This document shows positions 8,951 through 52,865 of a DNA stretch of 64,000 bases, piece by piece (the first letter of the stretch is position 1; every line of letters starts with the position of its first letter). Under the pieces are notes generated by a model. That model saw only the letters and a program-made list of their open reading frames with translations. It searched no databases and was not told the origin of the DNA. Position numbers and translations under genes: made by a program. Source of the stretch: Candidatus Poribacteria bacterium (GTDB taxonomy: Bacteria > Poribacteria > WGA-4E > JAJDTR01); contig CBDCTK010000002.1 of the NCBI GenBank assembly GCA_965222225.1, forward strand, positions 2,112,001-2,176,000. The letters run 5' to 3'.

Positions 8951-8987
8951 GGATCAAGTTACCGAACAGGGAACGCGATAGAGATCC
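8951..8987 (+). repeat. GA-tandem hairpin cassette copy A, inside a GTAGGCGGGG...CCCCGCCT REP
   Basis: ggatcaa GT ta CC gaaca GG ga AC gcgatagagatcc. Confidence 0.85.
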
Positions 8988-9357
8988 TTCTGCCCCGCCT
9001 TGGAAGGCTTAATTGACGCTATTAATGCACTGCGAATATAGAGAAATGGTATTACATCTTGGCCAGCAGCATTGTACCCGTAAGAGCTGCTGTCAAATCG
9101 GCACAGAATGCTTTTTTGGCATATTGTTGCACCAACCCTGCCGAGAAAACCTTGATGTGATTGCGTACTGCGGGGCACTAGGTATCGAAGTCATTATCAA
9201 AGATAGGGTATTACCGAATTAGTAAGCAGCCTGAAACTCAGATGGAATACCTGGCGTCCGGCAGACATCAGCACTTCAAGATGCTAGTGGTTCGGGAATT
9301 AACCTCAAGTGATTTTGGCATACGATTTGCTCAACGTCTAGCCCTGAACCATAAGAC

Positions 9358-9600
9358 TACTAGGTTCTGTTGACATTTATGTTGGGCGGGCGCGTAAATC
9401 GAGGGAGGCACCCAACGGGTGGGAGACCCAACCCCTACGGCTGCCGGCGTATGCCGCGTTTCATTGAGCGCAGACTCTGCCTCAATCGTAGGGGATCAAA
9501 TGAGCGAATGGCGAATGCGATAGTAATCTTCTTGCCTCGCCCTCATTTTTATGCCTCCCTCAATAATCTGGTGACGATGAAATGTCAACAGAACCTAGTA
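9358..9600. mobile_element. MITE-like element with perfect 21-bp terminal inverted repeats
   Basis: TACTAGGTTCTGTTGACATTT (9358-9378) and AAATGTCAACAGAACCTAGTA (9580-9600); CTAG at both ends; no transposase. Confidence 0.75.
9493..9529 (+). repeat. GA-tandem hairpin cassette copy B
   Basis: ggatcaa AT ga GC gaatg GC ga AT gcgatagtaatct, between GTAGGGG and the REP arm TGCCTCGCCC. Confidence 0.85.
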
Positions 9601-9726
9601 GATGTGATACACGCTAATCAAAAAGTGGACGTATTCGATTCCCCGGCGGCGTCAACCTCTAAAGCAGAGCAGACGTCTTAAGAATTGAAAACATTCACTT
9701 CTCACATGCGGCAAGGAGGTAATGCG

Positions 9727-10212
9727 TTGAAATCGAAACCACGGCGATTGGTTGAAGAATTCTATGAAATCAATAAGGAGTTCGATCGCGCCTTTGAATC
9801 TTTCGGTATTCCTCGTCGGAGTGTAAAGGGTGAAAACACGAACTGGCGTCCACCGATGGATATTTACGAAACGGCTGAACACTTCATCGTAAAGATTGAG
9901 CTTGCAGGCATTCAGCCGGACGAGGATGTAAGACTTCGATTGGATAATAACGTTCTCAAGATAACAGGACACCGAAGAGATCGAACGCAACTCAAAAAAC
10001 AACACTACCATCAAGCCGAGTTAAGCTATGGTCCATTTGAACGTTCGGTAGTTCTTCCAAATGTGTTGGACGAAGATTGCGAAGCGATTGCCAGCTATGA
10101 AAACGGTTTTATCGAAATTAAAACCCCGAAAATAAAACAAGATTCATCCAAAGAAATCTCTGTGCAAGTAAAAGATGAAGCCAAAACCATTAAACCTGTC
10201 AACGAAGAATAA
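9727..10212 (+). CDS. Hsp20/alpha-crystallin small heat-shock protein
   Basis: WRPPMDIYET...YGPFERSV...YENG; AAGGAGG RBS before the TTG at 9727. Confidence 0.92.
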   Translation: MKSKPRRLVEEFYEINKEFDRAFESFGIPRRSVKGENTNWRPPMDIYETAEHFIVKIELAGIQPDEDVRLRLDNNVLKITGHRRDRTQLKKQHYHQAELSYGPFERSVVLPNVLDEDCEAIASYENGFIEIKTPKIKQDSSKEISVQVKDEAKTIKPVNEE

Positions 10213-10224
10213 AGGAGTTAGATT

Positions 10225-12699
10225 ATGTCGAAGAAAAATGAGACTGAGAATGAAGACGTACTAGATCCGGAAGTCACCGCCGAGATTCCTATTCTTCCTG
10301 TTGACGATTTGGTTGTGTTTCCCTACATGCCGCCGGTGCCGCCGTTCGCGCCGCATCACATCGCGCTTTCCGGCGATTGGGTAACCAAGGCTGTCGATGA
10401 TGCCATGGTGAACGGGGAACGTGCACTGTGTGTTTTTCGACAGGTCGGAAACCGGGAATCGAATTCAAGAACCGCCGAAGACCTCGCTCCCGTGGGCACG
10501 TTGATTCGAATCTTGAGATATAAAAAGGACGATGAAAGCGTGCTGTTTTTGGCTCGCGGTCGGGCACGGGTAAGAATTGAGGAAATCCTTGAAACCAAAC
10601 CTTTCCTCAAAGCACGTGTGCAGGTCATAGAGGAAGAAGCGGAACAAGATCTTGAAGATGACAACGTTGAGATTGAAGCCCTCGTCCGTAGCACACTTGA
10701 TATTGTCCAAAAGATAGTGAAGCTGTCATCTCGGTATCAGGAGGAACTGGCAATTGTTGCGGAAAATATTGAGGAGCCCGGCCGACTTGCGGATTATATT
10801 GCGGCGATACTTGACTTTCGTTCTGATGACAAACAGCACATTCTTGAGTCAATTTCGGTTAAAGATCGACTGAACCATCTGATCGTAATCTTGACGAAGG
10901 AACACGACCTGCTTGAGTTGGAAACCAAGATTCAATCCGATGCGCAAGCGGTAATCAATAAAGGACAGCGTGAATATTTTCTGCGCGAGCAATTGAAAGC
11001 CATCCAAAAAGAACTGGGCGAATCGGACGATCTTCTGCTGGAAGTGGATGAGATGCGCGCACAGCTTGAAAACGCTGCTATGCCCGATAAAGCCCGCGAA
11101 GCGGCTGAAAAGGAGCTCAACCGTCTCTCGAAAATGCACTCCTCGTCCCCGGAATCCACAGTCTCTCGAAATTATTTGGATTGGCTTTTAAACCTTCCGT
11201 GGAACACTAGCACCGCAGACAATCTTGACATTCCCCACGCGAAAGAGATACTTGATGAAGACCACTACAATCTCACGAAGATTAAGGACCGTATCTTGGA
11301 GTATCTCGCCGTTCGGATGCTCAAACAGGATATGAAAGGGCCAATCCTCTGTTTCGTCGGTCCGCCGGGAGTGGGCAAAACGTCACTGGGCAAATCCGTT
11401 GCACGGGCGATGGAACGGAATTTTGTGCGGATTTCACTGGGCGGGACACACGATGAAGCAGAAATCCGTGGACATCGAAGAACGTATATTGGATCGATGC
11501 CGGGACGCATTATCAAAGGCATCCGTCAAGCGGAATCCAATAATCCGGTTTTTATGTTGGACGAAATAGACAAACTCGGGTCGGATTTCCGTGGAGATCC
11601 GGCGGCGGCAATGCTTGAGGTACTCGACCCGGAGCAGAATGACACTTTTACGGACAATTATCTTGACGTACCGTTCGATCTTTCCAAGATAATGTTCATT
11701 ACAACGGCAAATCAGCTCCACACCATTCCACCCCCGTTGCGTGATCGCATGGAAACCTTGGAGTTGCCCGGCTACACGGCAATCGAGAAATCAATGATTG
11801 CCAAACAGTATTTAATCTCCCGCCAAATTGAGGCACACGGCATTACCGCAGACCAGTTTGCCATTGGAGACGAGGCAATCGATCGCGTCATTGATGAGTA
11901 CACGCGTGAGGCGGGTGTGCGTAACCTTGAGCGAGAACTGGGGACACTCTGCCGTAAGTCTGCTCGTAGCATAGCCGAGGGAGAAAAAGATCCGATAGAC
12001 CTGACCGCCGACAATCTTCCCACTTACTTGGGACCTCCGAAATTCTATTCCGAAGTGGCGGATCGAAAGGAGGAGGTCGGCACTGCGACAGGACTCTCGG
12101 TAACCCCCGCAGGCGGAGAGATTCTGTTCATCGAAACCACGCGTATGGTTGGTAAGGGAAAGCTGACCTTGACCGGGCAAATTGGCGATGTAATGCAGGA
12201 GTCGGCAAAAGCCGCGCTGAGTTACATCAAATCGCAGAGCGAGGAGCTACACTTTGACCCCGACTTTTGGAATAGTGACATCCACATCCATGTGCCGGCC
12301 GGAGCAATTCCGAAAGATGGGCCATCTGCCGGGGTTGCCATTGCGACCGCTTTGGCATCGTTAGCCACTGGACGCCCGGTCTCGCCCGAGGTTGCCATGA
12401 CCGGAGAAATCACGCTGCGTGGACGGGTGCTCCCCATCGGCGGGTTGAAAGCAAAGGTGCTGGCGGCGAAGCAGGCGGGCATTAAAACTGTTATCGCTCC
12501 AAGTCGAAACGAAAAGGATTTGGTAGAAATACCTGATGACGCAACGGAAGGACTTGAACTCGTGTTCTCGGATCACATTGACCAAGTGCTGAACCGTGCA
12601 CTAAAACACAAGGAGCACACGGTAGATTCCAAACCGACTGACCACCCCGATCCTTCAATCCAAGCTGACTCGGCGCCTCCCCCTCCTTCGGTTGGGTAA
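10225..12699 (+). CDS. lon: ATP-dependent protease La (LonA)
   Basis: LON N-domain, GPPGVGKT Walker A, DEIDK, catalytic PKDGPSAG. Confidence 0.97.
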   Translation: MSKKNETENEDVLDPEVTAEIPILPVDDLVVFPYMPPVPPFAPHHIALSGDWVTKAVDDAMVNGERALCVFRQVGNRESNSRTAEDLAPVGTLIRILRYKKDDESVLFLARGRARVRIEEILETKPFLKARVQVIEEEAEQDLEDDNVEIEALVRSTLDIVQKIVKLSSRYQEELAIVAENIEEPGRLADYIAAILDFRSDDKQHILESISVKDRLNHLIVILTKEHDLLELETKIQSDAQAVINKGQREYFLREQLKAIQKELGESDDLLLEVDEMRAQLENAAMPDKAREAAEKELNRLSKMHSSSPESTVSRNYLDWLLNLPWNTSTADNLDIPHAKEILDEDHYNLTKIKDRILEYLAVRMLKQDMKGPILCFVGPPGVGKTSLGKSVARAMERNFVRISLGGTHDEAEIRGHRRTYIGSMPGRIIKGIRQAESNNPVFMLDEIDKLGSDFRGDPAAAMLEVLDPEQNDTFTDNYLDVPFDLSKIMFITTANQLHTIPPPLRDRMETLELPGYTAIEKSMIAKQYLISRQIEAHGITADQFAIGDEAIDRVIDEYTREAGVRNLERELGTLCRKSARSIAEGEKDPIDLTADNLPTYLGPPKFYSEVADRKEEVGTATGLSVTPAGGEILFIETTRMVGKGKLTLTGQIGDVMQESAKAALSYIKSQSEELHFDPDFWNSDIHIHVPAGAIPKDGPSAGVAIATALASLATGRPVSPEVAMTGEITLRGRVLPIGGLKAKVLAAKQAGIKTVIAPSRNEKDLVEIPDDATEGLELVFSDHIDQVLNRALKHKEHTVDSKPTDHPDPSIQADSAPPPPSVG

Positions 12700-13145
12700 A
12701 TTGGCACAGTAGGTGAATCCATCCCCTGTGAGAGATTTACTTTTGGGATTCACCGCATCCTTGTAAATTGTAGCGCAACGAAACCGAGTTTTTCCCGAAG
12801 AACCTCGGTTTCTTCCCTATGTCCAAGATGACGGATGCACCAGGACAAGCTCCCTGCACGCCTCCCAAATATCAACCCTTTCGGTGCCCTACAGGGCGAC
12901 GGATTGCTCCGAGTGCACTTGGGGATTCCCATAGTTCCGTCACGAAAACATCTGCCCGATCCCCGTAGTCCGCCAAGATTTCCACTTCAAGACAGTCCGG
13001 GCAACTCCCCACTCCTTTTCCAAAAACTTTATCTAATCTTTCTTCTTCGCATTAGCGCGTAACGTCATCGCATAAGACGACCTGCTTCTCAGAGTTCAAT
13101 GCTATGGCTGGTGTTTAGGTGTCGGCGCCGAGTTGATTGACATCA

Positions 13146-14125
13146 TCACGGGTTACCGGTCCGTTTGAGAACTCCCCAAGATATCGGCAACTTTCCGTTT
13201 GGGTTGACTATAAATGCACCAAGCGGCAGCCAGGAAGGAAATATGTTATCAACACCGGGAGGAGTTCTCGTGAGTTTGACCGCGTTCCTCCCGTTGGTGT
13301 CCATCAAGTAAATATTAAAATCTCCACCACGCGTTGACACAAAGGCGATTTTTCTCCCATCCGGCGAATAGGCCGGCATCCTGTTGTTACCCTCTTCCGT
13401 AAGCTGCTCTAAATTTTTCCCTTCAGCGGTTATCACGTAAATGTCATAACCCTCGAAGACGCGCTGTGACTGGAACGCAATCTTGCGTCCGTCTGGCGAC
13501 CAATTAGGATTCCAATTGTACTTTAGGTTGGTGTCGCCAGTGAGATTGCGCCTTCCCTTGCCATCTGCATTCATCACGAAAATATGACGAGCATCCAACG
13601 CGCCGAAATTGGGGCGGAGACAAACGCAATCTTGCTTCCATCTGGCGAGCAAATCGGTAAAACATCCTGCATCTCGTGTTCTGCCAACCTTGTCCGATTA
13701 CCTCCATCGGCTTCCACAGTGAAGATGTCGCAGTTGATTTCACAGAATGATGTAAAGGCAATCTTCGTGCCATCCGGTGACCAACTAGGGGGGCCTTCAC
13801 GAAAATTGTCATGGGTGAGTCTAATCACGTTGTTGCCATCGCTGTCCATCACATACAGGTCATGTGTAACACCACGCCCTGATGCGAACGCAATTCTTCT
13901 CCCATCTGGCGAGCCAGCGGGGTGCAAGTCAGATGCCGGGTGGTCGGTGAGTTGGACAAGATTGTTTCCGTTTACGTCCATGGAGTAGATGTCCCAGTTG
14001 CCATCGTGGTTTGATATAAAGACGATTTTCGGTTTGGACCTCTGCGCTGTGGTGTCCGACGTAACCATAAACGCCAATAGCAGTAGAAACAGGCATCTTC
14101 TCAAAAATGGGCTGATTTTATTCAC
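13146..14125 (-). pseudogene. Secreted TolB-like PD40-repeat protein split by one frameshift near 13615
   Basis: ORFs 13574-14125 and 13146-13652 join at KIAFVS / RPNFGALD; WSPDG repeats; C-terminal VNPNGKLPISWGVLK. An assembly error cannot be excluded. Confidence 0.75.
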
Positions 14126-14200
14126 CGGTCATATTCTCCTTTTTCGGGTTCTTCACTTCTAGAGAATTCTCTAACCTGAGTTGCCACCTTTGAAGCACGA

Positions 14201-14244
14201 GGGATCTCTATCAGGATCTACTATCGCACAAGGATCTCTATCGC
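14201..14244 (-). repeat. Three tandem tail units of the hairpin cassette (GATAGAGATCC-like) next to a REP hairpin
   Basis: Minus strand: gc gatagagatccttgt gcgatagtagatcct gatagagatccc. Confidence 0.7.
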
Positions 14245-14400
14245 GACCTCCTGTCGCGCGCAAAGTTCGCTCCGATAGAGGTCGCGTTATAAATTGTGCT
14301 ACTACGATCCGAACCAAGTAAATCCTACATGTGCAATTCGTATTGCAATGACAATAGCCCGCATCATCAAGATTCGTAGTTCAAAAGGCAATCTCGCAAG

Positions 14401-15363: not shown

Positions 15364-15459
15364 TTTTCCCTCCTTAGTTGTGGGTAAAGTAATACCATTT
15401 CGCTTGAATAATAGTGCATATGATGTCTGAGCTATTTCGTCCACTTTCTCCGTAGGCGG

Positions 15460-15496
15460 GAATCAAATGAGCGAATAGCGAATGCGATAGAGATCC
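15460..15496 (+). repeat. GA-tandem hairpin cassette copy C, inside a GTAGGCGGG...GCCCCGC REP
   Basis: gaatcaa AT ga GC gaata GC ga AT gcgatagagatcc. Confidence 0.85.
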
Positions 15497-15809
15497 CCTT
15501 GCCCCGCGGACTTTGCGCGGAGACAAAGCTTATTATTCCGCTCCAAGCAAGTTTCTTTACTTAATCCACGTAGTCAATGCACTTCCATTTTATAAAAATG
15601 GTATAAGCAGTAAAAGTAACTTGTGCACATTGGTGAAATAGTGAAGCAAATTCAATGATTTGGAGTGCCCTTCGTATGTCCACTCAAGTGCTTTTTTGAA
15701 AAGCTGACGACAAAGCCATCGTTGGAGAAAGAAGGAGGAGGTTTTAACCATCTGGTCTTTTTGGGTGACCATTGAAAAGGCCTCCAGCGGTTCCTGATAC
15801 TTTATGTAA

Positions 15810-15880
15810 CCTGTCGCCCCTCTGGGGCTTTGGTGTGAAGTGCCTTAATGTTACTATACACCTTTCGCGCCGCTGGCGTT
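15810..15880 (-). repeat. Pair of AGCCCC-N3-GGGGCGA-type REP-like hairpins (no cassette)
   Basis: cctgtcgcccctctggggct and cctttcgcgccgctggcgtt; same class as the hairpins inside the MITEs at 26496 and 37199. Confidence 0.55.
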
Positions 15881-16105
15881 TACAAAGGCTGGTGGCATCT
15901 CCATCGCGTTCCTTGTTTGGTCACGTGGTCGCAGGGCGACTCGATCGTCCTCTTTATTCACTCGGTTGATTGCACTCTAAAAGATGACAATTCATAATTG
16001 TACTTTTGTACAAAGTCGAGCTTATGACTTCCATCCTCAATCTTAGACGCTCGGAAGATAGGGACAATGCCGCGACCATTTCAATACCAATCCAAGCCGC
16101 CACCT

Positions 16106-16628: not shown

Positions 16629-19600
16629 TCAATCTGCAAACAGATTCTGAATCTGATCTTCAAGATTCCCAGGATACACGGAACCCGTAATCTCTCCCGC
16701 CGCGTTAATCAGCACAATCGAACCTCTCCCTTCAATAGCGTAGCGATTAAAGGTTTCGCCTTTCGCACCAAGCACATCCGTTGGGCTGTCCAGACCGATT
16801 GAGTAGATTAGTGTGTGTTCCGCTATCTGTTGTTTGATCGTGTCGACATCCGCTTTAGCCGGACAGATAGTGACGCAGACGAGTCCCTTTTCCCCATAAA
16901 TCTCCTGCAATATATTCAACAAGCGTACTGATTGAACATTATCGAAGTCGTCGCGCGCCCAGAAATCGAGAGCGACTGTTTTTCCTTTTAGATGTCCAAT
17001 GGAGGCGGAGGAGCCGGACAACCACTTTTCAACCGCCAACTCCGGTGCGGGCTTCCCCGCCAGGGCATCGAGACGTCTTTTGGCTTCCTCCGCATCCGCC
17101 CATTGCGCACCCCATTCTGGGGGCGGGGCGGACCTCGCGTCAATCGGCTCGAAAGTAAAGACCAAATCTCGCTGATTTACTTTGATACCTTCAAAGACTT
17201 GAGACTGACGATTGGTGCCGACGTAGATTGATGCCTCCGGGCCCTTGATGTATTTCAGTTCAAACTCACCCTCTCTATTGGTGTAATCGGGGCGGTGAAC
17301 GACACCGGATGCAGGGTCTTTGCGTGGTTCAATCATCACTGTCGCATGGTAAACTGCCTCGCCGTCGGCGGCAACGACTTTCCCGGCAAGGTATCCGTCC
17401 GCATTGACTAATACAAGGTCGTGACGCTGATTGGTTTTCAAAATCTCAAACGTATGGCGTGCGTAGTCCGGATGGATAATGTCCAGTTGGTAGAGAACTA
17501 CCATGGGAAGATTCTTAAGCCGATAATCGCCATTTGCATCGGTAAATGTTTCCCAGCGTTGCCACTGCTGCCTCGATTCTAACCGAGCTCCGTTAACCGG
17601 CTCACCAGATGTATCAATGATGCGTCCCTCAATGAAAAACTGACCGATGGCTGGGCGTAGCACGAAGTCATCAATTTGGCTCACCCCCTCCGTCGCAGTG
17701 AACTCCTCTGTTACCTCCCTCCAATATCCTTTCGCCTTCGCAGTAATTACGTATTGAACACCGACAATAAGCCCAACTTCAGGGAACCGTCCGTCGCCGT
17801 TCGTCACGCCTACGCCTGAAATGATTACTGTATGTCGCAAAGGGTCCAGTCGGTGTCGATGGATTCTTGCAGATGGAATCGGTTCTCCATTGGGGTTGAC
17901 CACTCGCCCGGAAACTTTGACTAACTTGAAGGGTTTCATCCGGATCTCAATCGATGCGCCTGGCTGGAATTCGACCCGTGCGGAACCGCGCAATTTCAGT
18001 TCGCTCTGCTCGGCGGAAAGAGCGAGTCTCTGTCCGAGACGCAGCCCGTGAATGGTAAGTTCACCATGCTCGTTCGATATGCCGTAATCCCTACGCCATC
18101 CGAACGAATCGGTGATTCTCGCGCCGGTGACAGGGTCTCCAGTCTCCGTTAATGTCCGGAAAATTGATGGTGTTCCCTTTGAAAACTGAAAATCAACAAC
18201 CACGGTTTCCCCCTCAACGACATTGACGCGTTTATTAGCGTGTTCTACATCTTGATATCCCTGTGGTGAGGAAAAAAAGACGAGCCCGGGACCCGGTGCA
18301 GCACTAAAGCGGTAAGTTCCGGATTCGTCCGTTTGCACACTATGGCTTCTGTTTTGAGGCGCCGGACGAGCTGCGTCGTACATACTGATATTATAATTGG
18401 CAATCGGTTCGTTCGTGTCCCCGTCAGTCACTCGCCCTGTAACATAGCCGACCCGAACCAAAGTCATGTCTACCTTAGAGGCTGTCTGTCCCTCGCCAAC
18501 CTTGACGACTGCGTTGGCGGCAGCCGTCCACCCTGCCGGTCCCTCTTGAAGATGGACGTTGTAAGTACCAGGGGGAAGATTTCTCACGACGTAATGCCCA
18601 TTCACATCAACGCTTGCCCGTCCTCCCCCCCCAGTTGGATGGATGCTCTCAACCGAGATTGTCGCGCTTTCGACCGGCGCACTGGACTCTACATAGCTTA
18701 GGTGCCCCTCAATCTGTGCCTCACGATCCAGCTTGAACTCCAGTCCCTTTGTACCCGTTAGCACGGCGGTTTGCCTTTCTCTTGCGTATCCTTGCCTTTG
18801 AACAGAAAGAGCCGCCATTCTACCTTGCGGCAGTCTCCGGAAAATGAAAATTCCATTCACATCACTCTTGACGGGGGGAATGGGAATAAGATTCAGAATT
18901 GAATGATTCTCTAACCCGAGAATTATTAGGCTATCCCTCAAAAATCCCTTGAGTTGTACTTCCGCATTTTGAATCGGTTCGCCTGCTGTGTTCATTATCC
19001 TACCGGATATGACTGTCGGCTTTTCAAGTTGAATCTCAACATTCGCTGTACTCTGTGTCCGAAGGTTCTGCCAGCCGCTGGCGTGTTGGGGGTGCACCGC
19101 AACGATGTCTACTCGATTCCGCTCGTCGGGTTCGGGACGAGGGAACTCAAAATTAAACATCCCATCTTCTGCTGTGCGAGCGACGTACTTGGGTTGATTG
19201 GATTGTAAAGAATACAGAACTTCAGCGTCAGCTACCGGTTCACCGCCGCTGTCAACAACTCGACCGGAAAAGGTTATCCTCTCGGTGGCCTCCTCCGTCA
19301 TGACGGCCGAGAATCGTGGATTTTGGGGCTCTCCGCCATTTGCGGCAGATGTCCCCTTTCGGCCTATTGACCGATTGCTCGGCTCTATTGAAACGCGGTT
19401 GGAGGCAGCCAACGGACGCTTTCCTGTCGCCACCGGAATGCCCGAAACTGACGAGTGCGTTGAATAAGGAACAGACTCAAGAAGCGCGACCTCAATTGGC
19501 AATCGGTTCATGACCGATGGCGACAACCCAATCTGGTTTGCTGAGGACGATGTCGGCAAATCGTTCCGCACTCTAGCAAGCCCAAACAAGATGCACAATG

Positions 19601-20287
19601 CCGTAATCAGCGCAAATAAAGATTTACCAACGGTAGCGCTACTCCACGCGAAACCTATCGCTGGCGCCGGTACGTATCGAATCTTCTCCATTATCTGCAT
19701 GAGAAAACCGGCTCTTAGTTTGTGGCTTTTCAACAGTCTGCCGTAGTGCTGAGACATGACACCCCCAAGTTGCTGACGTGCCCGATGCAATTTGCCTTTG
19801 ACCGTGTTCACGGACACGCCGAGGAATTCTGAAATCTCCTTCAGCGAACAGTCCCCCATGTAGAACATCGACACGGCGACCCGATTTTCATCGGGCAGCG
19901 CGGACATTGCCTGTTCAAGATCCACCTGCCAGCCTTCTACGGGCGCGGTGTGAGCAGGTTCAATTTTTAGCGCGTCCTCTGCGGTCTCCTCTAGGATAAT
20001 ATCGCGCTTGCGCTTTTTAATGACGCGCTCCATCCAACGTTTGCACTCGTTGGACATGATGGTATACAGCCAGGTTCGGAAGAGAGATGCGGGTGCGGGA
20101 GCTTAAAAAGACGACGGTATGCCCGTATGAAGACCTCCTGCGTGATATCCTGTGCATCAGCCTAATTCCTCACCTTTTGAAAGGCGTAGGTGTAGACCAT
20201 ATCCTGATATTTGTGCACGAGCACACCAAAGGCGTCGCGATCACCTGCGAGTGTTTGGGACACTATCTTTTCGTCGGCTGAATACAT
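16629..20287 (-). pseudogene. ECF sigma factor fused to a TM segment, carboxypeptidase-regulatory-like repeats and a thioredoxin-like domain; sigma2 region disrupted, downstream 1142-aa frame (16629-20057) intact
   Basis: Upstream frame reads MYSADEKIVSQTLAGDRDAFGVLVHKYQDMVY...RN*ADAQDITQEVF, with TAG at 20162-20164 and a 2-nt CT insertion near 20081-20086. Sigma4 SLKEISEFLGVSVNTVKGKLHRAR; repeated GRVVD..GEP domains. Confidence 0.85.
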
Positions 20288-20479: not shown

Positions 20480-20516
20480 GGATCAAGTGACCGGGTAGGG
20501 AACGCGATAGAAATCC
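20480..20516 (+). repeat. GA-tandem hairpin cassette copy D plus truncated tail
   Basis: ggatcaa GT ga CC gggta GG ga AC gcgatagaaatcc, then catagagttctt. Confidence 0.85.
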
Positions 20517-20528
20517 CATAGAGTTCTT

Positions 20529-20726
20529 GAAGGTGTATAGAAACACCAGAACCTCGTGCACCTAAGCCCCAGCGGGCATCAAGCGACTGGATAAGGAGCG
20601 CGATAGCAAATCCCGTGCGATAGAAATCCCACAGGTAAGTAGCAACCAACAGTGAAAACATGGAAATACTTCCTACAAATGACCAAAAGTGGCTTGTCAC
20701 CGATTACCGATTAATCAAACAGACTC
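20529..20726. mobile_element. Partial MITE (GAGCCTGTTTGAA-type TIR family)
   Basis: Aligns with the 37199-37477 and 26496-26690 copies and ends ATCAAACAGACTC|TTA; left end not found. Confidence 0.7.
20576..20630 (+). repeat. GA-tandem hairpin cassette copy E plus truncated tail unit
   Basis: gcatcaa GC ga CT ggata AG ga GC gcgatagcaaatccc gtgcgatagaaatccc. Confidence 0.85.
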
Positions 20727-21700
20727 TTAATTTTTCCCCAGACCGTAATTCTGTTGGAAGTGGGGGACACAGCTAGTCCTACCGGGCTAATGTCGGGCTG
20801 ATAATCGCGCGCATCATGGACATCGCTAAGTTGCTTAAGATATTTTCCATCGGCGGTCATCAAGTGTATCGTGCTGAGAAGATTACCGTTCAAGATACCG
20901 TCCCAGATCCCATATGCGATCGTCTGTCCATCCGTAGACCATGCGGGGTGCCAATGATGCTCTTGATTGTGCGTAGGCCTCTTGCGATTTCTACCATCCG
21001 CCCCCACCACATAGATGTGATTGAATCCTTCGTGCTCGGACATGTATGCAATCCGTTGTCCGTCGGGAGAAAACGCTGGTCTGGATTTATATGCTAAATC
21101 GTGCGTCACCCTTTTAAGCCCCTGTCCGTCTGCGCCTATCACGTAAATATCCCAGTTCCAATCATCTCTCCAGGATGTGAATGCAATCTCACCCCCATCG
21201 GGAGACCATGATGGCTCCCGCCCGTGGTCTTCATGCATCACACGATTATTTCCATCAGCATCCATCACGGCGATATGATCTAACAACTCTTCTTTTTTCC
21301 AATCTGGGTTGACGGTGAATGCAATCTTTTGCCCGTCGGGAGACCAGTCTGGATCCTCCTTCCGCCGCGGTCCATCTGTCAGTCTAATCGGGTTCTTTCC
21401 ATCGGCGTCCATTACGTAGATTTGATAGACGTCGCCGTTTCGTCTGGAAGCGAATGCAATCTTCGTCCCGTCAGGAGACCAATCCGGATCGAAGTCATTC
21501 GCTGGATTGTCTGTCAGTCTTTCTCGGTTTCCTCCATCGGCATCCATTACATAGATTTCATTGTTGCCATCTCTCCTAGATGTAAAAACAATCCGTGACT
21601 TCTGCGCGGCGAGTCCTTGTCTCAACCACAACTCCCCGCTCGTCAGACAGACGCACAGCCCCGCAAACAGCAGAAATCTAGGTATCAGCTTGAATCGCAT
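20711..21700 (-). CDS. Secreted TolB-like PD40-repeat beta-propeller (paralog of 14401-15363)
   Basis: Signal peptide, PDWSPDG repeats, C-terminal LAVSPTSNRITVWGKIK. Confidence 0.9.
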   Translation of the reverse strand: MRFKLIPRFLLFAGLCVCLTSGELWLRQGLAAQKSRIVFTSRRDGNNEIYVMDADGGNRERLTDNPANDFDPDWSPDGTKIAFASRRNGDVYQIYVMDADGKNPIRLTDGPRRKEDPDWSPDGQKIAFTVNPDWKKEELLDHIAVMDADGNNRVMHEDHGREPSWSPDGGEIAFTSWRDDWNWDIYVIGADGQGLKRVTHDLAYKSRPAFSPDGQRIAYMSEHEGFNHIYVVGADGRNRKRPTHNQEHHWHPAWSTDGQTIAYGIWDGILNGNLLSTIHLMTADGKYLKQLSDVHDARDYQPDISPVGLAVSPTSNRITVWGKIKSLFD

Positions 21701-21928: not shown

Positions 21929-22042
21929 GGATCAAGGGAGTGAATAACGACCGCGATAGAAATCCCTTCAAGCGAGCGATCAACTGCGTGGATAGCGAAG
22001 GTGATAGAGTTCCCATAGCAAATTCTGTGCAATAGAGCCCCC
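21929..22042 (+). repeat. Cluster of hairpin cassettes: copy F (21929-21965), a half copy, copy G (21978-22013) and two degenerate tails
   Basis: F: GG ga GT gaata AC ga CC. G: CT gc GT ggata GC ga AG. Preceded by GTAGGCGGGG. Confidence 0.85.
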
Positions 22043-22402
22043 TGAGAACTTCGTCAATCTCAACTCAGTCGTCATAGTCACCGACGAGCGAGAAGTCAAC
22101 CAACAGGTGACCACGGAGTCACGCTACTAAATCTCTTCGCTTCATTGGGTATTAGATGTTGCTTTCCGTGAGGATGCGTTTCGAATTCGTAAAGATAACA
22201 GCAGTGAAAAATTCGCCCTGCCCGACGTATTGCTCTCAATCTACTTAAGGCTGAAACGTCAAACAAACCTGGTGTTGCCAACAAGCGAATCAAAGCCGCA
22301 TGGGACAACATTCACTTTACTACTATTCTTGCAACTCTATTCTGAAAAATCAGATGCGATTCCCCGGGCGGAAGCGTCCTCCGCGTTAAGACTCTAGAAC
22401 TT

Positions 22403-26495: not shown

Positions 26496-26690
26496 GAACC
26501 TGTTTGAAAGGTACAGTTTGTAGGGTGCGCACTGCGCACCAGCCTCTAAAAGCCCCAGAGTGGGATCAAGGAAGCGAATAGCGACTGCGATAGAGATCCT
26601 ACAGGTATGTAGCAGCCAACAATGAAAACATGAAAAAACTTCCTACAAATGACCAAAAATGGCTTTGCCACCGATTATTCAAACAGGCTC
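26496..26690. mobile_element. MITE with GA(A/G)CCTGTTTGAA terminal inverted repeats and TNA flanks (IS5-family-like ends)
   Basis: tga|GAACCTGTTTGAA ... TTCAAACAGGCTC|tta; homologous to three other loci in the window. Confidence 0.8.
26563..26599 (+). repeat. GA-tandem hairpin cassette copy H
   Basis: ggatcaa GG aa GC gaata GC ga CT gcgatagagatcc. Confidence 0.85.
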
Positions 26691-37198: not shown

Positions 37199-37477
37199 GA
37201 GCCTTTTTGAAATGTACATCTGTAGGGTGCGATTAACGGAGCGAAAAGCGACTGCGATAGAGATCTCCTGCGATCCAGCGACTGGATAAGGAGCGCGATA
37301 GAACTCTTACCAGCCTCTAAAAGCCCCCACGGGGCGGAAGGTGTATAGAAACGCCAGAACCCCGTGCACCTAAGCCCCAGCGGGGCGACAGGTACGTAGC
37401 ATACAACAATAAATTCATGAATAAACTTCCTATAAAAGACCAAAAATTGCTCTGCTACCGATTATTCAAACAAAATC
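37199..37477. mobile_element. MITE (GAGCCTGTTTGAA-type TIR family)
   Basis: GAGCCTTTTTGAA ... TTCAAACAAAATC|tta; internal homology to 26496-26690. Confidence 0.8.
37230..37307 (+). repeat. Tandem GA-tandem hairpin cassettes I and J
   Basis: I: CG ga GC gaaaa GC ga CT. J: GC ga CT ggata AG ga GC. Confidence 0.85.
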
Positions 37478-44037: not shown

Positions 44038-44075
44038 GGAATCTCTATCGCACTCGCTATTCGCTCGCTTGATCC
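44038..44075 (-). repeat. GA-tandem hairpin cassette copy K
   Basis: Minus strand: ggatcaa GC ga GC gaata GC ga GT gcgatagagattcc. Confidence 0.85.
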
Positions 44076-45261: not shown

Positions 45262-45279
45262 TTTTGGAGGATATAATAA

Positions 45280-46488: not shown

Positions 46489-46650
46489 CGCAGATTTCCC
46501 CGTAATGCACATCTTAAAATACCGCCAAATCTCATTTCGTCGAGATTGCAATCACCGCATGTAGCGTGTAATAAGAATTCGCCTCCATTTATACCCCATC
46601 CTATCCGCAATTTCAACGCGAAACGGTACGGATGCCAATGGTGAATCCTC

Positions 46651-46679
46651 TTGACACTGCTACTGCCCTTTGCTATGAT
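46651..46679 (+). promoter_or_regulatory. sigma70 promoter of the CoA-transferase gene
   Basis: TTGACA-N17-TATGAT, followed by the hairpin GAAGCCCGAT-aggga-ATCGGGCTTC. Confidence 0.6.
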
Positions 46680-46784
46680 TTCACGACGCGAAGCCCGATA
46701 GGGAATCGGGCTTCTCTTGTGTTTGGACTTTTAACGGATTAAATTGGAAGTTAAAATCATTACCGAAAGGTTAATATTTGACCG

Positions 46785-47972
46785 ATGCTAGGTGCGTTAA
46801 CGGGGATTAGAGTGCTTGATCTCACGCGAGTTTTGGCGGGTCCATACGCTACAATGGTCTTGGGCGATCTTGGCGCCGAGGTTATCAAGCTCGAGCAACC
46901 CGGCACCGGCGACGAATCTCGGAATTTCGGACCTTTCAAGAACGGTTTCAGTCTTTACTTTATGAGCGTCAATCGAGGTAAGCAGAGTTTGACGCTTGAC
47001 TTGAAGGCGCCGCAAGGAAAAGAGATTTTTTTGGAATTGGTCAAGCAATCTGACGTTCTTGTCGAGAACTTCCGCCCCGGCGCGATGAAAAAACTCGGGC
47101 TCGATTATGAAACTCTCAAACAATCTCAGCCTTCATTGATTTACGCCGCCTGCTCGGGGTTTGGTCAAACCGGTCCTTATGCCGAGCGAGGGGCGTATGA
47201 TATGATTATCCAAGGGATGGGGGGCATCATCAGCATTACAGGCGAACCTATGCGCCCACCGGTGCGGGTCGGCACTTCAATCAGTGATATCACGGCTGCA
47301 CTGTTTACGGCGATTGGTATACTCTCCGCGCTCCGCCACCGAGATCGGACGGGTGAAGGACAGTTGGTCGATGTCGCTATGCTGGACAGCATGGTCGCAA
47401 TCTTGGAGAATGCCATTGTGCGGCACTTTGCGACGGGCGAGATTCCACAGCCGTTAGGGAGTCAACATCCGGCGATCACTCCGTTTGAGGCCTTTGAGTC
47501 GGCGGACGCATACATCATCATCGCGATAGGTAACGATTCTCTGTGGGAGAAATTCTGCCAACATGTGGAGCGTCTCGACCTCGTCAGTGATGAGCGATTT
47601 GCCACAAATGCATCGCGCACTACAAACCATGACCAACTCCATCCCATTCTTGCCGAGATTATGCGGAGGCGCACCACGGTTCAGTGGATTGAGGGACTGG
47701 ATGCGCTTGGCGTCCCCTGCGGCCCCATCAACACGATTGACAAGGTTGTGAACCACCCTCAAATACTTGCACGGGAGATGATTGCGACAGTTTCACATGA
47801 CATCACCGGGAGCGTAGAGGTGCCTGGAGTGCCGATAAAGTTGTCGAAGACCCCCGGTCAGGTTACCACTCCGGCTCCGGCGCTTGGGGAGCATACCGCA
47901 AAGATTTTGACGGGTTTGCTAGGGAAGTCCCCTGAGACGGTTGACAAGTTGGAGCAAGAGGGGGTTGTATGA
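46785..47972 (+). CDS. CaiB/BaiF family (class III) CoA-transferase
   Basis: VLDLTRVLAGP, NRGK, ENFRPG, SGFGQTGP. Confidence 0.95.
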   Translation: MLGALTGIRVLDLTRVLAGPYATMVLGDLGAEVIKLEQPGTGDESRNFGPFKNGFSLYFMSVNRGKQSLTLDLKAPQGKEIFLELVKQSDVLVENFRPGAMKKLGLDYETLKQSQPSLIYAACSGFGQTGPYAERGAYDMIIQGMGGIISITGEPMRPPVRVGTSISDITAALFTAIGILSALRHRDRTGEGQLVDVAMLDSMVAILENAIVRHFATGEIPQPLGSQHPAITPFEAFESADAYIIIAIGNDSLWEKFCQHVERLDLVSDERFATNASRTTNHDQLHPILAEIMRRRTTVQWIEGLDALGVPCGPINTIDKVVNHPQILAREMIATVSHDITGSVEVPGVPIKLSKTPGQVTTPAPALGEHTAKILTGLLGKSPETVDKLEQEGVV

Positions 47973-48051
47973 TTTCCCCGAGGAATTTCGTGCCTACCTC
48001 GTGTGTAGAAATTCGATTTAGGAAGGTTCTGCGTTCTCAAAGTTTACATAT

Positions 48052-49137
48052 ATGAAAGAAACAGTGATTCCCCATTATTCAGTTTTAGTGCGTCGCGGGC
48101 TTGTGGAAATCACTCGCCGGGAAATCCAGCGTCGCTTGCAGGACAAGGGCAGGCTTGAATTTGTTACTCAAGAACCGGAACACATTCTGATTCGCTATTC
48201 GGGCGACCCGAGGGAATTGTTATCACTTAGATCCGCGGAGCAGGTGCTCTTGGTTGTTAAGGCGCTGCCAAAAATGTCGCGCTCCCGTCATTCTTTGACA
48301 GCGCTAGAAAAATCACTCGGACGTATTGACTTTCAACCTTATTTTGATATTTGCCGGCGAGTAGGTATACGGTTGCGGAAGCGGGTCACTTTTTGCGTCA
48401 GAAGCCGAATGATTGGGATGCGCAATTTTCGACGTGCCGACCTTCAGCGCGGCGTTGAGCGCGCCTTCATGGCCTATGGATGGCGCGCGATTGAGGAGAA
48501 TCCCGCACTTGAGATCTGGGTGGAGGCCGATGAAGCAAGGGTGACTATCAGCATTAAGCTCTCCTCAAGCGAGATGGCGAGGCGGAACTATAAACGCGCC
48601 AATTTTTCCACCTCACTCAGACCCACTGTCGCATACTCCCTTGTCCAACTCTCCGATCCGCAACCGGAGGATATATTCGTGGATCCTATGTGCGGAGATG
48701 GGACGATTCTCATCGAACGGGCATACTCGGGACGTTTCCGTTACCTGCTTGGCGGAGACATCTCGCTGGAAGCTGTGGAAGCCGCTCAGACAAACATTGG
48801 CAGAAAATATCAACCACGGCAACTCTTCCACTGGGACACCCAGACACTGCCACTCGATCGGCGAAGTGTGGATAAGATCGTGTGCAGTTTGCCATCCGGA
48901 AGAAAGGGCGCCGACAAATCCGAGATCTCCGAACTTTATTGGGAATTACTCACCGAGTGTGAGCGTGCATTGAAACCCACGGGGCGAATGGTACTTCTCA
49001 CGACGCAACGATTTGCTCTTGATAGCTTGTTGAAGGCACAACCCGCTTTCACGACGGAGCAGAGGTTTCGAATCGACCTGCGTGCACGGAATCCGTGGGT
49101 CTATGTTTGCGTGCCAACTGCAGAGAGATTCAGATAA
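48052..49137 (+). CDS. THUMP-domain RNA methyltransferase-like protein
   Basis: THUMP-like N-terminal half; SLRPTVA and DPMCGDGTILIE. Confidence 0.85.
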   Translation: MKETVIPHYSVLVRRGLVEITRREIQRRLQDKGRLEFVTQEPEHILIRYSGDPRELLSLRSAEQVLLVVKALPKMSRSRHSLTALEKSLGRIDFQPYFDICRRVGIRLRKRVTFCVRSRMIGMRNFRRADLQRGVERAFMAYGWRAIEENPALEIWVEADEARVTISIKLSSSEMARRNYKRANFSTSLRPTVAYSLVQLSDPQPEDIFVDPMCGDGTILIERAYSGRFRYLLGGDISLEAVEAAQTNIGRKYQPRQLFHWDTQTLPLDRRSVDKIVCSLPSGRKGADKSEISELYWELLTECERALKPTGRMVLLTTQRFALDSLLKAQPAFTTEQRFRIDLRARNPWVYVCVPTAERFR

Positions 49138-49265
49138 TTCTAGGCACTTGAAGCCCTCAATGGTCGCGCATATAACGCCGCTATAAAGGTTTCCATCGAG
49201 CGGAGCGACAAAAGAAAACGTCGCGGAAAATCTAGTCTGTCGCTTAGAAACTATAAATCATAACT

Positions 49266-49625
49266 ATGCCGTTCATCAAGATTAACGATTATGAACCCAT
49301 TGAGTTGGTTCCCGGTGCAAAAGCACGCACACCGTACGGCGAACACATTATGCTGTCCTACTTGGAAATGGAGGATGGCGCTGTCGTTCCATTGCACAAA
49401 CATCCGCATGAGCAGGCAGGAATGCTGCTGACGGGCAAAATGGAGTTAACCATTGGCGATGAGACACACGTATGTGTGCCGGGGGACATGTTCATCATCC
49501 CGCCTAACACTCCTCACACCGCGAAAGCTGTTGGTGGTAGCGCAACCCTATTAGACATCTTTAGCCCAGTACGAGAAGATTATGCCGCGCTGTTCAACAA
49601 GTACGCGCGCGAGGGACAACTGTAA
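49266..49625 (+). CDS. Cupin-domain protein
   Basis: HKHPHEQ...PPNTPH...DIFSPVREDY. Confidence 0.9.
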   Translation: MPFIKINDYEPIELVPGAKARTPYGEHIMLSYLEMEDGAVVPLHKHPHEQAGMLLTGKMELTIGDETHVCVPGDMFIIPPNTPHTAKAVGGSATLLDIFSPVREDYAALFNKYAREGQL

Positions 49626-49706
49626 ACGTGTCGCAGCGGACGATGCTTGGTCTTTGACCGTAGCATTTTCAATTGCCCGCAAAATTATCGACGGGAGCAA
49701 AAAAAT

Positions 49707-50489
49707 ATGAGTGATAACAACCTTATCAATGACCAACTACTAAAACAGTATCATGAACAGGGGTATTTTACCGTCAAAGGTTTGTTCACATCCGAGGAAG
49801 TTGAAGGTGTGCGGGACGAGATTCCGAAGATTGTTGAGCGTTATCCCGATGCCCCAAAGGAGTTGGTACAAATCGAGCCAACTGTTGCAAGCGGCGAGAA
49901 AATACCGGAATCCTTCGAACTCGGGGTGCGGAAACTCTCCCGCATGGCGCGGTACAACGAGTTTTTTCGCAACCTCGCCTTCCATCCAAAAATGGTAAAG
50001 ATAGCGAAAACTATACTGGGCCCTGGCATCGTACTGCATCAGGGTCAATTGCTCATGAAACCGCCTCGCCTCGGCGGGGAAAAGATTTGGCATCAAGACA
50101 ACGCTTATTTTCGGCTTGTGCCGAACCATGTCTTCGGCTTTTGGGTGGCGTGCGATGATGCCACCGTCGAAAACGGTTGTATGCACGTAAGACCTGGTTC
50201 GCATACGAAGGGTATCGCTGAACATGCCGGTGTTGGGGATGAATACGGATTGGTAACGCCACAGTCTTTAGAAGGTGCGGTACCCATTCCGTTGAAACCG
50301 GGTGATGCACTCGTCTTCCATGGTGAACTGTACCACTATACCTCGCCAAACATAACCGACAAACGACGGCGCGCAATACAGTATCATTACGCCTCTAGGG
50401 TGTGCCGGCAAACCACTGGGCAAGATCGTTTCAAGATTGAACCGGAAGTCCTAATCGCCGGACAAGACTATGCCGACACGTCAGTTTAA
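49707..50489 (+). CDS. Phytanoyl-CoA dioxygenase (PhyH) family 2OG-Fe(II) oxygenase
   Basis: WHQD, ENGC, GSH, distal H and RRA. Confidence 0.92.
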   Translation: MSDNNLINDQLLKQYHEQGYFTVKGLFTSEEVEGVRDEIPKIVERYPDAPKELVQIEPTVASGEKIPESFELGVRKLSRMARYNEFFRNLAFHPKMVKIAKTILGPGIVLHQGQLLMKPPRLGGEKIWHQDNAYFRLVPNHVFGFWVACDDATVENGCMHVRPGSHTKGIAEHAGVGDEYGLVTPQSLEGAVPIPLKPGDALVFHGELYHYTSPNITDKRRRAIQYHYASRVCRQTTGQDRFKIEPEVLIAGQDYADTSV

Positions 50490-50515
50490 AGAACTACGAC
50501 CAAAGGAGGAATAAG

Positions 50516-51550
50516 ATGGCTGAACAACTGAAGGTATCAAACGATGCAATAAACGACCCTCAGGAGTTACGTCGCCGTATTCAGGATGAGGGTTATCTGT
50601 TTTTCAAGCGGCTGCAGGATCCGGATAAGTTGCAGGATTTGCGCCGCCAAATGCTGGACGTAATCCAGGAAGGGGGCTGGCTCGTCCCCGGCACCGACCC
50701 GATTGACGGAATAGCAGACCCATTGACGACATGCACCGAAGGTGATATTGGGTACACTGATGTCTATCACGATGTCTATAAGTTACAAGCATTTCACCAA
50801 TCGGGGCACTGGCCCGAAGTGCTTGATCTACTGGAAAAGCTGACGGACAAACCCGTACTGCCGCACCCTCAGAAGATTGCCCGGCTCTGGTTCCCGCAGT
50901 ACATCGATCATACGACGCCGATACACCAGGATTGTGTCCATTTTCAAGGTAACTTCGAGACATATACCTGCTGGGCTCCAGTGGGTGATTGCCCCATCGA
51001 ATTGGGCGGGTTGGCGGTGTTGCCGGGCTCTCATAAAATTGATCGTGTTATAGACCATCACTTCTCATTGGGCGCCGGCGCTCTTCAAATCTACACTGAC
51101 GAAATCGATGGCGAATGGCACAGCACAAACTACGAAATCGGCGATACGCTCTTTTTCTTAGCGTTGACGGTGCATCAGGCATTGCCCAATCTAACTAAGA
51201 ATCGGCTGCGAATCTCTTTGGATAACCGCTATCAGACCATCGGAGATCCAATTTGTGACGAAGTCATCCGCCCGCATCTGAGCCGTTTTAGTTCACTGAG
51301 TTGGGATGATATCTATCAAGGCTGGGAATCGGACGATTTGAAGTATTATTGGAAGGATTTGGTAGATACCCCCGAGACTCCCGTTATACCAAAGGACCAC
51401 GGTTACTCGGAGCACGGGTTTGCGGAAGCACTGTCGCTTGCCAAGGCGGGCGATAGGAAGGCTATAATACACTTGGAGCGCGTTATCAAGAATGATCCCG
51501 CCTCCGATGGGGCAAGAATCGCGCGAGAAGCGATACAGGCACACGTTTGA
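50516..51550 (+). CDS. Phytanoyl-CoA dioxygenase (PhyH) family protein
   Basis: HQD, GSH, VHQA, RISLDNRY. Confidence 0.9.
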   Translation: MAEQLKVSNDAINDPQELRRRIQDEGYLFFKRLQDPDKLQDLRRQMLDVIQEGGWLVPGTDPIDGIADPLTTCTEGDIGYTDVYHDVYKLQAFHQSGHWPEVLDLLEKLTDKPVLPHPQKIARLWFPQYIDHTTPIHQDCVHFQGNFETYTCWAPVGDCPIELGGLAVLPGSHKIDRVIDHHFSLGAGALQIYTDEIDGEWHSTNYEIGDTLFFLALTVHQALPNLTKNRLRISLDNRYQTIGDPICDEVIRPHLSRFSSLSWDDIYQGWESDDLKYYWKDLVDTPETPVIPKDHGYSEHGFAEALSLAKAGDRKAIIHLERVIKNDPASDGARIAREAIQAHV

Positions 51551-51689
51551 AAAAAGTTAGAATGTCGGGCCGTGTGAGGATTACCAATCGATTTATAATC
51601 GAAGATGATTTATGATTGGTTGATTGAAAATCGCTACTACAAGCCGGATTGTGCATGCCCTAACACTAGTGATTTTGAAAGGACTCGGA

Positions 51690-52736
51690 ATGATTATAAA
51701 AACAGCCGCTGAACTTAACGAGTTGGTTCGAAAATCGCTGATTTCGGCGGGCGCCGACGAACGGAATGCCAATCGTGTCGCGGAGGCGCTGGTTTCGTCG
51801 AGTTTATGCGGTGTTGATACACACGGCATTCATCATCTACCGGGTTATGTCCGGTATGTGCAATCCGGCGAGATTGTCCCGACAGCCTGGCCCGAAATCC
51901 TGCAAGAGGACGCAACCAGCGCGCGCATCGGTGGAAACTGGACGTTTGGCCATGTCACCGCAAAGTATGGCATGGAAGTGGCTATAGAAAAAGCGAAGAG
52001 TCATAATATATCCGTCGTGAGCATTGTCCAAGCGAACCATATCGGGCGCCTGGGAGAATATGCCGAAATGGCAGTGTCCGAAGGAATGGTAGGCATTGTC
52101 TGGGCAGGAGGGTTTGGCGAGGAAGTTCCTGTTACGGTACCCTATGGCGGGCGTAAACCTATCTTGAGCACCAATCCAATCGGGATGGGGTTCCCGATTG
52201 GGGATGGTTCGCAGATGATTATCGACTACGCCACAACCGTGGTTGCGGGAAGCAAGGTGCCCTCCTATAAGGACAAAAATTTATCCCTACCACCCAACAG
52301 TGTCGTCGATAAGGACGGCAACCCAAGCAACGATCCGGATGCCTATCTCCAGGGAGGGTTTCATCTTCCCTTCGGCGGACACAAGGGTTACGCGTTGATG
52401 CTGGCAGTTGAGTTCCTCGGGCGAATTATGTCGGGGGCGGATGCCTTCGCGGCTGAGGGACGAGGCGGACCGATATTTCGTCGATCCGGTACCACGATGA
52501 TGGCTTTGAGAGCCGATCTGTTTCAGCCGTTCTCCGATTACGCATCCCGAGCAGAGGAGTTGGCGAATCGGGCAAGATCTGCACCTCCAGCGCCGGGCTT
52601 TGATGAAGTGGTAATTCCGGGCGATCTTGAAGCACGAACACGGGAGATACGCTCGCGCGACGGCATCCCTATCCCCGACCCCCTGTGGGAACGGCTCATG
52701 ACGATGGCAGAATCGTTGGGGCTTGATATCGGTTAA
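51690..52736 (+). CDS. Ldh_2/Mdh2-family oxidoreductase
   Basis: GVDTHG, NHIG, STNPI, PFGGHKGY. Confidence 0.92.
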   Translation: MIIKTAAELNELVRKSLISAGADERNANRVAEALVSSSLCGVDTHGIHHLPGYVRYVQSGEIVPTAWPEILQEDATSARIGGNWTFGHVTAKYGMEVAIEKAKSHNISVVSIVQANHIGRLGEYAEMAVSEGMVGIVWAGGFGEEVPVTVPYGGRKPILSTNPIGMGFPIGDGSQMIIDYATTVVAGSKVPSYKDKNLSLPPNSVVDKDGNPSNDPDAYLQGGFHLPFGGHKGYALMLAVEFLGRIMSGADAFAAEGRGGPIFRRSGTTMMALRADLFQPFSDYASRAEELANRARSAPPAPGFDEVVIPGDLEARTREIRSRDGIPIPDPLWERLMTMAESLGLDIG

Positions 52737-52797
52737 ATGGGACTTGTGCAGCTGAATGCTCAAAAGTAATGTAGGTCGGCGAGTCACTATGCGTAAT

Positions 52798-52865
52798 GGG
52801 ATTTCTATCGATCAACTGACCGAATAGGGAGGGCGATAGAGATCCTTGTGCGATAGCAAGTCTCC
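52798..52865 (+). repeat. GA-tandem hairpin cassette copy L (52809-52845), with an inverted tail before and a truncated tail after
   Basis: gggatttctatc | gatcaa CT ga CC gaata GG ga GG gcgatagagatcc ttgtgcgatagcaagtctcc. Confidence 0.85.

Follow-up and report, generated by a model that had tools for sequence, protein, structure and literature searches.

A dispersed hairpin cassette of about 36 nucleotides in Candidatus Poribacteria behaves as inserted DNA and may be a REP-like mobile element acting as single-stranded DNA

What is the short hairpin cassette that recurs twelve times, with changing but mutually complementary stem letters, in one stretch of a sponge symbiont chromosome, and how could it have spread? 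The stretch, hereafter the window, covers 64 kb (positions 2112001-2176000 of contig CBDCTK010000002.1, here called C2) of the 5.70-Mb, two-contig genome of a Candidatus Poribacteria bacterium (GCA_965222225.1). A sequence-only reading of the window had proposed that the cassette is an undescribed structured mobile element of DNA or RNA. The analyses presented here agree with mobility, as the cassette behaves as inserted DNA: its fold is constrained on one strand, its sites occur both empty and filled, copies nest inside each other, orientation is biased by strand, and occupancy turns over between species. With a probability of about one half, we consider it a non-autonomous mobile element of ~36 nucleotides (nt) that acts as single-stranded DNA, resembles repetitive extragenic palindromic (REP) sequences and is moved in trans by a structure-specific enzyme, most likely a Y1 transposase of the HUH kind. 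The single-stranded intermediate and the identity of the enzyme are the components of this reading that we infer.

Each cassette forms one hairpin, and a pattern search allowing up to four mismatches found 924 copies in the genome; the counts given below refer to these copies unless another set is named. Read on the top strand, the unit consists of GATCAA, a stem of two base pairs (bp), a tandem G.A/A.G, a second 2-bp stem, a GRATA loop, GCGATAG and a short ATC-pyrimidine tail. Outside the four stem pairs, positions through GCGATAG are 91-99% constant, and GATCAA makes up the six bases 5' of the stem in 92-99% of copies. Flank information is approximately nil downstream beyond cassette position 36, and a weak G-(C/G) precedes the left-hand G. 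Within the window, 11 copies matched the pattern at up to three mismatches, compared with none in 100 dinucleotide-preserving shuffles, and the twelfth (20577) is genuine, with a tail one base longer. All twelve copies named by the sequence-only reading are real, with starts that had been placed one base low in 11 of the 12 cases. An assembly or adapter artefact can be set aside because the cassette is present in many independent assemblies.

The evidence for a constrained fold comes from the stem letters. A recount of the 12 window copies reproduced the earlier tally exactly, with 43 of 48 pairs being Watson-Crick, four G.T and one a mismatch. Genome-wide, each of the four stem pairs uses three or four pair types and is Watson-Crick or wobble in 92-96% of copies. 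The stems form 227 haplotypes, and the copies go back to many sources that differ in their pairs, as had been suggested from the window. Mutual information reached 0.44-1.14 bit between pairing partners, compared with at most 0.20 bit for any other pair of stem letters. The alphabet is limited: T is nearly absent from the first position of both 5' dinucleotides and A from the second position of the outer one, and the second position of the inner one is restricted to C or T. Wobble cells were of the G.T type in 418 cases and of the A.C type in 61, which extends to the whole genome the one-strand wobbles first noticed in the window and indicates that only the strand as written folds well.

A covariance model trained on the 12 window copies was also run on loci of further genomes of the genus, totalling 138,688 bases. 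It returned 69 matches in which 95.5% of cells were paired, compared with 62.2% in 500 shuffles (none of which reached the observed value) and 24-59% when partners were slid by one to three columns. All four pairs vary on both sides in this set. The covariation goes far past what neutral decay of one repeat would leave, as had been argued from the window. Decay after insertion would hit all positions alike: non-paired cells amount to 4-6% per pair, comparable to the 1-9% deviation at constant sites. Two further roles for the letters were considered. An outer helix joining both GATC ends is not supported, as position 31 is A or G without a change at the supposed partner C3, and a function of the stem letters as target guides was rejected, the stem-flank mutual information being at most 0.06 bit.

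Tandem G.A and tolerance of G.U are typical of RNA, and with RNA parameters 653 of the 924 copies adopt exactly the proposed structure, the top strand being more stable than the bottom one in 799. The cassette could accordingly be a structured RNA motif, i.e., a protein-binding tandem-G.A hairpin that acts in transcripts and is carried passively by REPs and by miniature inverted-repeat transposable elements (MITEs). We consider this unlikely. Relative to co-directional flanking genes, the cassettes point either way about equally (285 copies in the same direction, 255 in the opposite one), and their orientation tracks instead the GC skew and the REP strand; additionally, occupancy is not conserved between species and copies nest, as described below. 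The sequence-only reading knew of no named element with this form, and Rfam returned none at its gathering score across the window; at E values up to 10, a search with two cassettes gave a lone chance match of 12 bits to a small nucleolar RNA, which lay outside the cassettes.

Comparisons of empty and filled repeat copies within the genome provided evidence of insertion. A MITE family of ~215 bp occupies 37 loci, with the cassette detected in 28 of these, in most cases at one shared position in the middle of the MITE, a GTAG hairpin. The MITE-borne cassettes carry many different, compensated stems, and three MITE copies are cleanly empty. In the REP family termed REP-B, 60 copies are empty, and the 15 copies that are filled at one particular site have, without exception, gained exactly 35 nt, the inserted cassettes representing ~10 stem haplotypes. 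The GTAGGAGC family includes 100 empty copies, and amongst its filled copies with a single cassette six gained 35 nt and two gained 34 nt. A third, fully palindromic REP family has 10 empty copies and two filled loci, both at +35 nt. The left junction of filled copies is always G|ATCAA, no target duplication was seen in the three REP families compared, and a duplication of ATC or GATC was rejected on the basis that empty REP-B copies lack ATC. At the right junction, ATC is followed by one to three pyrimidines. The target preference is for G (0.91), preceded by C or G (0.86), with a G before that (0.67).

The cassette also inserts into itself. A looser scan identified 37 complete inner units that split a host cassette, 13 of them after G12, eight after G19 and 16 after G23, and in all 37 cases both host halves are still complementary. 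A scan with the strict pattern gave only four such cases, because the inner copies have loop and tail variants. Turnover was also apparent when species were compared: one relative bears cassettes in 14 syntenic intergenic regions, nine of which are empty in this genome and five cassette-bearing, mostly with other stems. Orthologous spacers of different species (flanking genes 80-90% identical) are too diverged for base-exact empty sites.

Most copies are intergenic, with 804 lying mostly outside crude open reading frames (ORFs) and 120 lying more than half inside them, although these ORFs make up 82% of the genome. The folding strand coincides with the C-rich strand in 636 of 921 copies (~70%), and in 396 of 566 clusters when copies within 1 kb are collapsed (p = 3e-21); the bias persists among isolated copies without a nearby GTAG (p = 4e-6). 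The C-rich strand is labelled here as the putative lagging strand on the basis of GC skew, which is patchy along this chromosome. Neighbours less than 300 nt apart are in the same orientation in 201 cases and inverted in 53. Copies form 233 clusters of two to seven heads spaced within 60 nt, and 519 tails have no matching head, most of these orphan tails being leftover host parts in nested arrays. As a separate observation, the GC skew of C2 changes sign at least eight times in 200-kb bins, which points to numerous large inversions in this closed assembly or to an unusual layout of replication.

The strong replication-strand bias, the very good conservation of the constant letters and the persistence of the family in two bacterial families would also be compatible with a chromosomal site that serves the host, is read by a host protein on one strand at the replication fork and is kept by selection, as are Chi and the FtsK-orienting polar sequences (KOPS). 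Against such a role stand the nine empty syntenic regions, a copy number that ranges from 1 to 1216 among related genomes, and the nesting and MITE-riding of the cassette, which appear selfish. A host-serving site is thus a distinctly unlikely explanation.

The cassette is closely linked to classical REP repeats, which passages of PMC6006769 and PMC3333891 define by GT[AG]G at the 5' foot of a palindrome. A limited, keyword-based literature search found no description of the cassette. Its isolation from known systems did not hold up. A co-oriented GTAG lies 0-12 nt upstream of 247 of the 924 copies, compared with 24 for the complement CTAC, and the commonest spacing between GTAG and cassette is 5 nt (104 copies), followed by 4 nt (38 copies). 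Cassettes beside a GTAG are co-oriented with it in 145 cases and inverted in nine. In relation to GC skew, the GTAG strand of REP-B is biased in the same way as the cassette (p = 4e-10; p = 0.0016 for empty copies alone). On the other hand, no GTAG is present within 16 nt of 226 of the 361 isolated copies, and the upstream GTAG belongs to the hosting REP and not to the cassette. A perfect host hairpin of at least 5 bp was found around 11 of the 361 isolated copies, compared with 8.6 expected, in a weak test limited to short offsets.

Candidate enzymes were sought on the whole chromosome. In agreement with the earlier statement that no matching enzyme is encoded in the window, the five matches to Y1_Tnp (PF01797) are all located elsewhere on the chromosome. 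Amongst the Y1 proteins, one of 157 amino acids (aa), encoded at C2:3080258-3080728, scored 65.8 with the NCBIfam IS200/IS605 model (cut-off 55) and 30.6 with that for REP-associated tyrosine transposases (RAYTs; cut-off 80), and a cassette lies within ~200 nt of its gene in all six genomes of the genus examined. A second Y1 protein, of 247 aa, was rejected as the enzyme, having full-length close matches only in this genome and one other and a fragment in a third. Its transposase-like gene (C2:2563965-2564705) has a counterpart of 99% identity in one further species of this genus, which suggests recent transfer. No match to an IS110-type transposase was found in the genome.

The spread of the cassette was assessed by scanning 121 genomes for its 30-nt core with at most one mismatch. 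It was found in all eight genomes of this genus (545-1216 copies per genome), in all four genomes of one genus of another family (184-202 copies per genome) and in three further genomes with 1-3 copies each, and in none of the 82 genomes of the sister family. In the second cassette-bearing genus, copies share the core through GCGATAG and differ in the tail, and all four genomes carry some Y1_Tnp gene. A scan of the whole collection found the cassette in at least 125 stretches, all of them from Candidatus Poribacteria among the matches listed, and viral contigs gave no cassette match.

The proximity of GTAG at a preferred distance, the co-orientation and the shared replication-strand bias raise the alternative that the cassette is no independent element but a loop module or by-product of the REP system, which would arise and spread only through cutting and rejoining of REP hairpins by the REP transposase, in the manner of the variable linkers of bacterial interspersed mosaic elements (BIMEs). 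Published models (PMC3333891) do couple BIME variation to integration. We regard this alternative as rather unlikely, given the isolated copies that have no GTAG nearby, the entry of cassettes into other cassettes at three defined positions, and the sister-family genomes with both GTAG REPs and the same Y1 orthologue, in which no cassette was detected.

An origin by reverse transcription was also considered, in which a small RNA would be copied and inserted. The 5'-truncated, tail-only pieces (the 519 tails without a head) speak for such a retro-element product, as does one REP loop that holds a 15-nt insertion of tail alone. The sequence-only reading had pointed to an intact array or a longer RNA next to a gene for a reverse transcriptase, HUH/RAYT or primase-polymerase as a possible source. 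No such array or RNA was found, and the single RVT_1 match in the genome, on the minus strand at C2:4499560-4501572 (L194 514-2526), is a 670-aa abortive-infection reverse transcriptase of the AbiA type (PADLOC AbiA, 254.8 bits), i.e., a defence enzyme. With the orphan tails mostly being host remainders in nested arrays, a retro-element is highly improbable.

Under the favoured reading of a REP-like mobile element, the top strand would fold into a short hairpin, with the constant ATCAA on its 5' side and GCGATAG and the tail on its 3' side. A trans-acting enzyme, most likely a Y1 HUH transposase of the IS200/IS605/RAYT kind, would recognise the stem by its shape, together with the unpaired letters that stay constant, while ignoring the stem letters. 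Any stem that pairs could therefore propagate, and copies that lose pairing would stop spreading; constant mismatches would in this way come to lie within freely covarying pairs. The constant unpaired letters in otherwise free paired stems and the wobbles on one strand would then be the trace of selection for transposition competence. The element would join the 3' side of a G, preferably in G-(C/G)-G, without target duplication; it favours positions 5-6 nt downstream of the GTAG in classical REP hairpins, as well as the interior of other cassettes. A single-stranded DNA stage is suggested because the pattern is independent of transcription and dependent on the replication strand, involves no target duplication and is co-oriented with the REP strand.

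Comparable logic has been described for REP recognition, where passages of PMC8266576 report conserved mismatches inside a variable stem beside a conserved 5' motif, a requirement of the E. coli REP transposase for two conserved stem mismatches, and contacts of the IS608 and ISDra2 enzymes with irregular hairpin bases. The same paper describes the spread of REP-type repeats as still poorly understood.

Several observations weigh against this reading. The first concern the enzyme: the 157-aa Y1 orthologue (~63-85% identical) is present in 55 of the 82 cassette-free sister-family genomes, the hairpin at the two sister-family Y1 loci with a detected flanking hairpin is a GTAG REP, the orthologue was not found in two of the four genomes of the second cassette-bearing genus, and only one of six Y1 loci of that genus has cassettes within ~300 nt of the gene. 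The distribution of this Y1 protein does not fit a dedicated cassette enzyme. Additionally, GT[AG]G, the tag by which REPs are defined, is missing from the cassette. The predicted fold is weak: for the 21-nt core of the top strand, the mean energy is -0.67 kcal/mol under DNA parameters and -2.4 kcal/mol under RNA parameters, compared with -0.61 and -1.3, respectively, for mononucleotide shuffles. A pyrimidine-GA-purine context, in which sheared tandem G.A stabilises hairpins of DNA, is present in approximately three quarters of copies.

The junctions raise a further difficulty. Two lineages other than those above, REP-A and the CCCCAGCGGG family, gain 33 and 34 nt; the right junction is not base-exact, and the A or C that comes after G in empty sites is not seen in filled ones. 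This counts against the favoured mechanism because simple Y1 chemistry does not predict such junctions. Most simply, one rule would cover all cases, with a 36-nt unit taking the place of the base after G; alternatively, the boundary may shift by one base according to the target. No circle, excision product or active polymorphism was seen. Assembled contigs from public runs, which break at the repeats, gave no view of transcripts, strand or excision.

The strand bias is also opposite to expectation. A lagging-strand-template rule is reported for IS608 and ISDra2 in passages of PMC3333891 and PMC6006769. The folding strand of the cassette lies instead on the C-rich, inferred lagging strand. Hairpins on the lagging-strand template are preferentially deleted, and such deletion might leave copies whose stable strand sits on the other template.

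A second mobile-element account is a tentative possibility, namely that the cassette represents an independent class of mobile DNA, among the smallest known. A 36-nt single-stranded unit would then be recognised, through its tandem sheared G.A hairpin, by an enzyme other than the REP transposase, would replace the nucleotide after a G and would target REP hairpins as well as its own loop, 3' arm and tail, giving rise to nested arrays.

Individual loci of the window illustrate these relationships. The cassette at 8952..8987 (plus strand, as are all window copies but one), with stems GT/AC and CC/GG, lies at the centre of a ~205-bp MITE with inverted ends (8851..9055, plus strand), whose central GTAG hairpin (REP-A) holds it. 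Another copy (9494..9529) lies within a second MITE (9357..9601, plus strand) that has 22-bp terminal inverted repeats, and neither MITE occurs in the orthologous spacers of three further species of this genus. The copy at 15461..15496 occupies the centre of a further MITE of the first family (15387-15610). A classical REP of the REP-B kind, i.e., GTAG with a 7-bp palindrome, is uninterrupted at 26520..26540 (plus strand), 23 nt upstream of the cassette at 26564..26599, and another REP-B (37222..37330, plus strand) is split by two co-oriented cassettes (37231-37266 and 37272-37307). The copy at 21930..21965 has GTAG and 5 nt upstream and stands in direct tandem with that at 21978..22013. The remaining copies are found at 20481..20516, at 20577..20613 (a 7-nt tail variant followed by an orphan tail), at 44039..44074 (the sole minus-strand copy of the window) and at 52810..52845, where the insertion point follows the G of a cassette tail in inverted orientation.

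Other repeats and genes adjoin these copies. A module GAAGGTGTATAG..AAC.CC adjoins cassettes and REP-B at 20530-20576 and 37330-37350 of the window, and also at locus L001 (1890-1920); given this recurrence, the intergenic repeats therefore form larger mosaics. The spacers that hold the cassettes at 20481, 20577 and 21930 adjoin a gene for a 329-aa PD40 (TolB-like) beta-propeller protein (20711-21700, minus strand), which has dozens of tandem paralogues across the genus at 65-90% DNA identity. A separate repeat of ~225 bp at 22142-22365, with many copies in related genomes (85-88% identity), is neither the cassette nor either MITE. At 16629-20057 (minus strand), the window also encodes a 1142-aa protein that combines a sigma-70 region-4 domain with six carboxypeptidase-regulatory-like repeats, an unusual fusion.

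Compared with known systems, the cassette is closest to REPs, BIMEs and REPINs (REP doublets forming hairpins). Like these, it is an imperfect palindrome of 30-40 nt with hundreds of intergenic copies that is probably read as folded single-stranded DNA, conserves its stem mismatches while the other stem letters stay complementary, and has a conserved motif 5' of the hairpin. A Y1 gene with the repeat close by is found in its genus, and its replication-strand bias is that of the GTAG REPs of the same genome. It differs in that its 5' motif is GATCAA, without GT[AG]G, and that its stem has only 2+2 Watson-Crick pairs around the tandem G.A. Neighbouring cassettes are mostly direct and not inverted, with no REPIN doublets; the cassette inserts into REP hairpins and into itself; its 227 stem haplotypes contrast with the few classes of REPs; and the distribution of the candidate enzyme does not track it.

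Gene-less derivatives of IS200/IS605 elements are known as palindrome-associated transposable elements (PATEs). With IS608 and ISDra2, representatives of IS200/IS605, the cassette shares a strand-specific replication bias and an irregular hairpin as its presumed recognition element; it also appears to insert 3' of a fixed short target without target duplication, the base after the G being absent from filled sites. However, it has one hairpin and not two subterminal ones, its target information is contained in only ~3 nt with no guide-target pairing detected, and its folding strand is opposite to the published rule.

In integron attC sites, one folded strand is read by its shape, and these sites have conserved unpaired bases, variable complementary stems, crossover after a G and replication-dependent orientation. 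The cassette is similar in its presumed recognition by strand shape, its conserved unpaired bases, its variable stems, the junction after G and the orientation effect; unlike attC, its 3' end has no inverse core site, it carries no gene, and its copies are dispersed and not arrayed. A kink-turn, by comparison, has a three-nucleotide bulge followed by tandem G.A, whereas the tandem G.A of the cassette is a symmetric 2x2 internal loop between 2-bp helices, without a bulge. Altogether, the cassette is best placed among the single-stranded-DNA hairpin repeats of the REP/Y1 kind, without GTAG, the doublet habit or the two-hairpin layout; its kind is thus familiar, and its mechanism would be the one outlined above.

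Base-exact pairs of empty and filled sites are rare for REP-type repeats, and the cassette offers dozens of internal pairs, a defined left junction and self-nesting. It amounts to a natural selection experiment that separates the letters that are needed (mismatches, loop and flanks) from those that are ignored (stem pairs). If its enzyme is found, the cassette would provide a compact model of structure-guided integration of single-stranded DNA. For the sponge symbionts themselves, it accounts for much of the repeat load that fragments their short-read assemblies.

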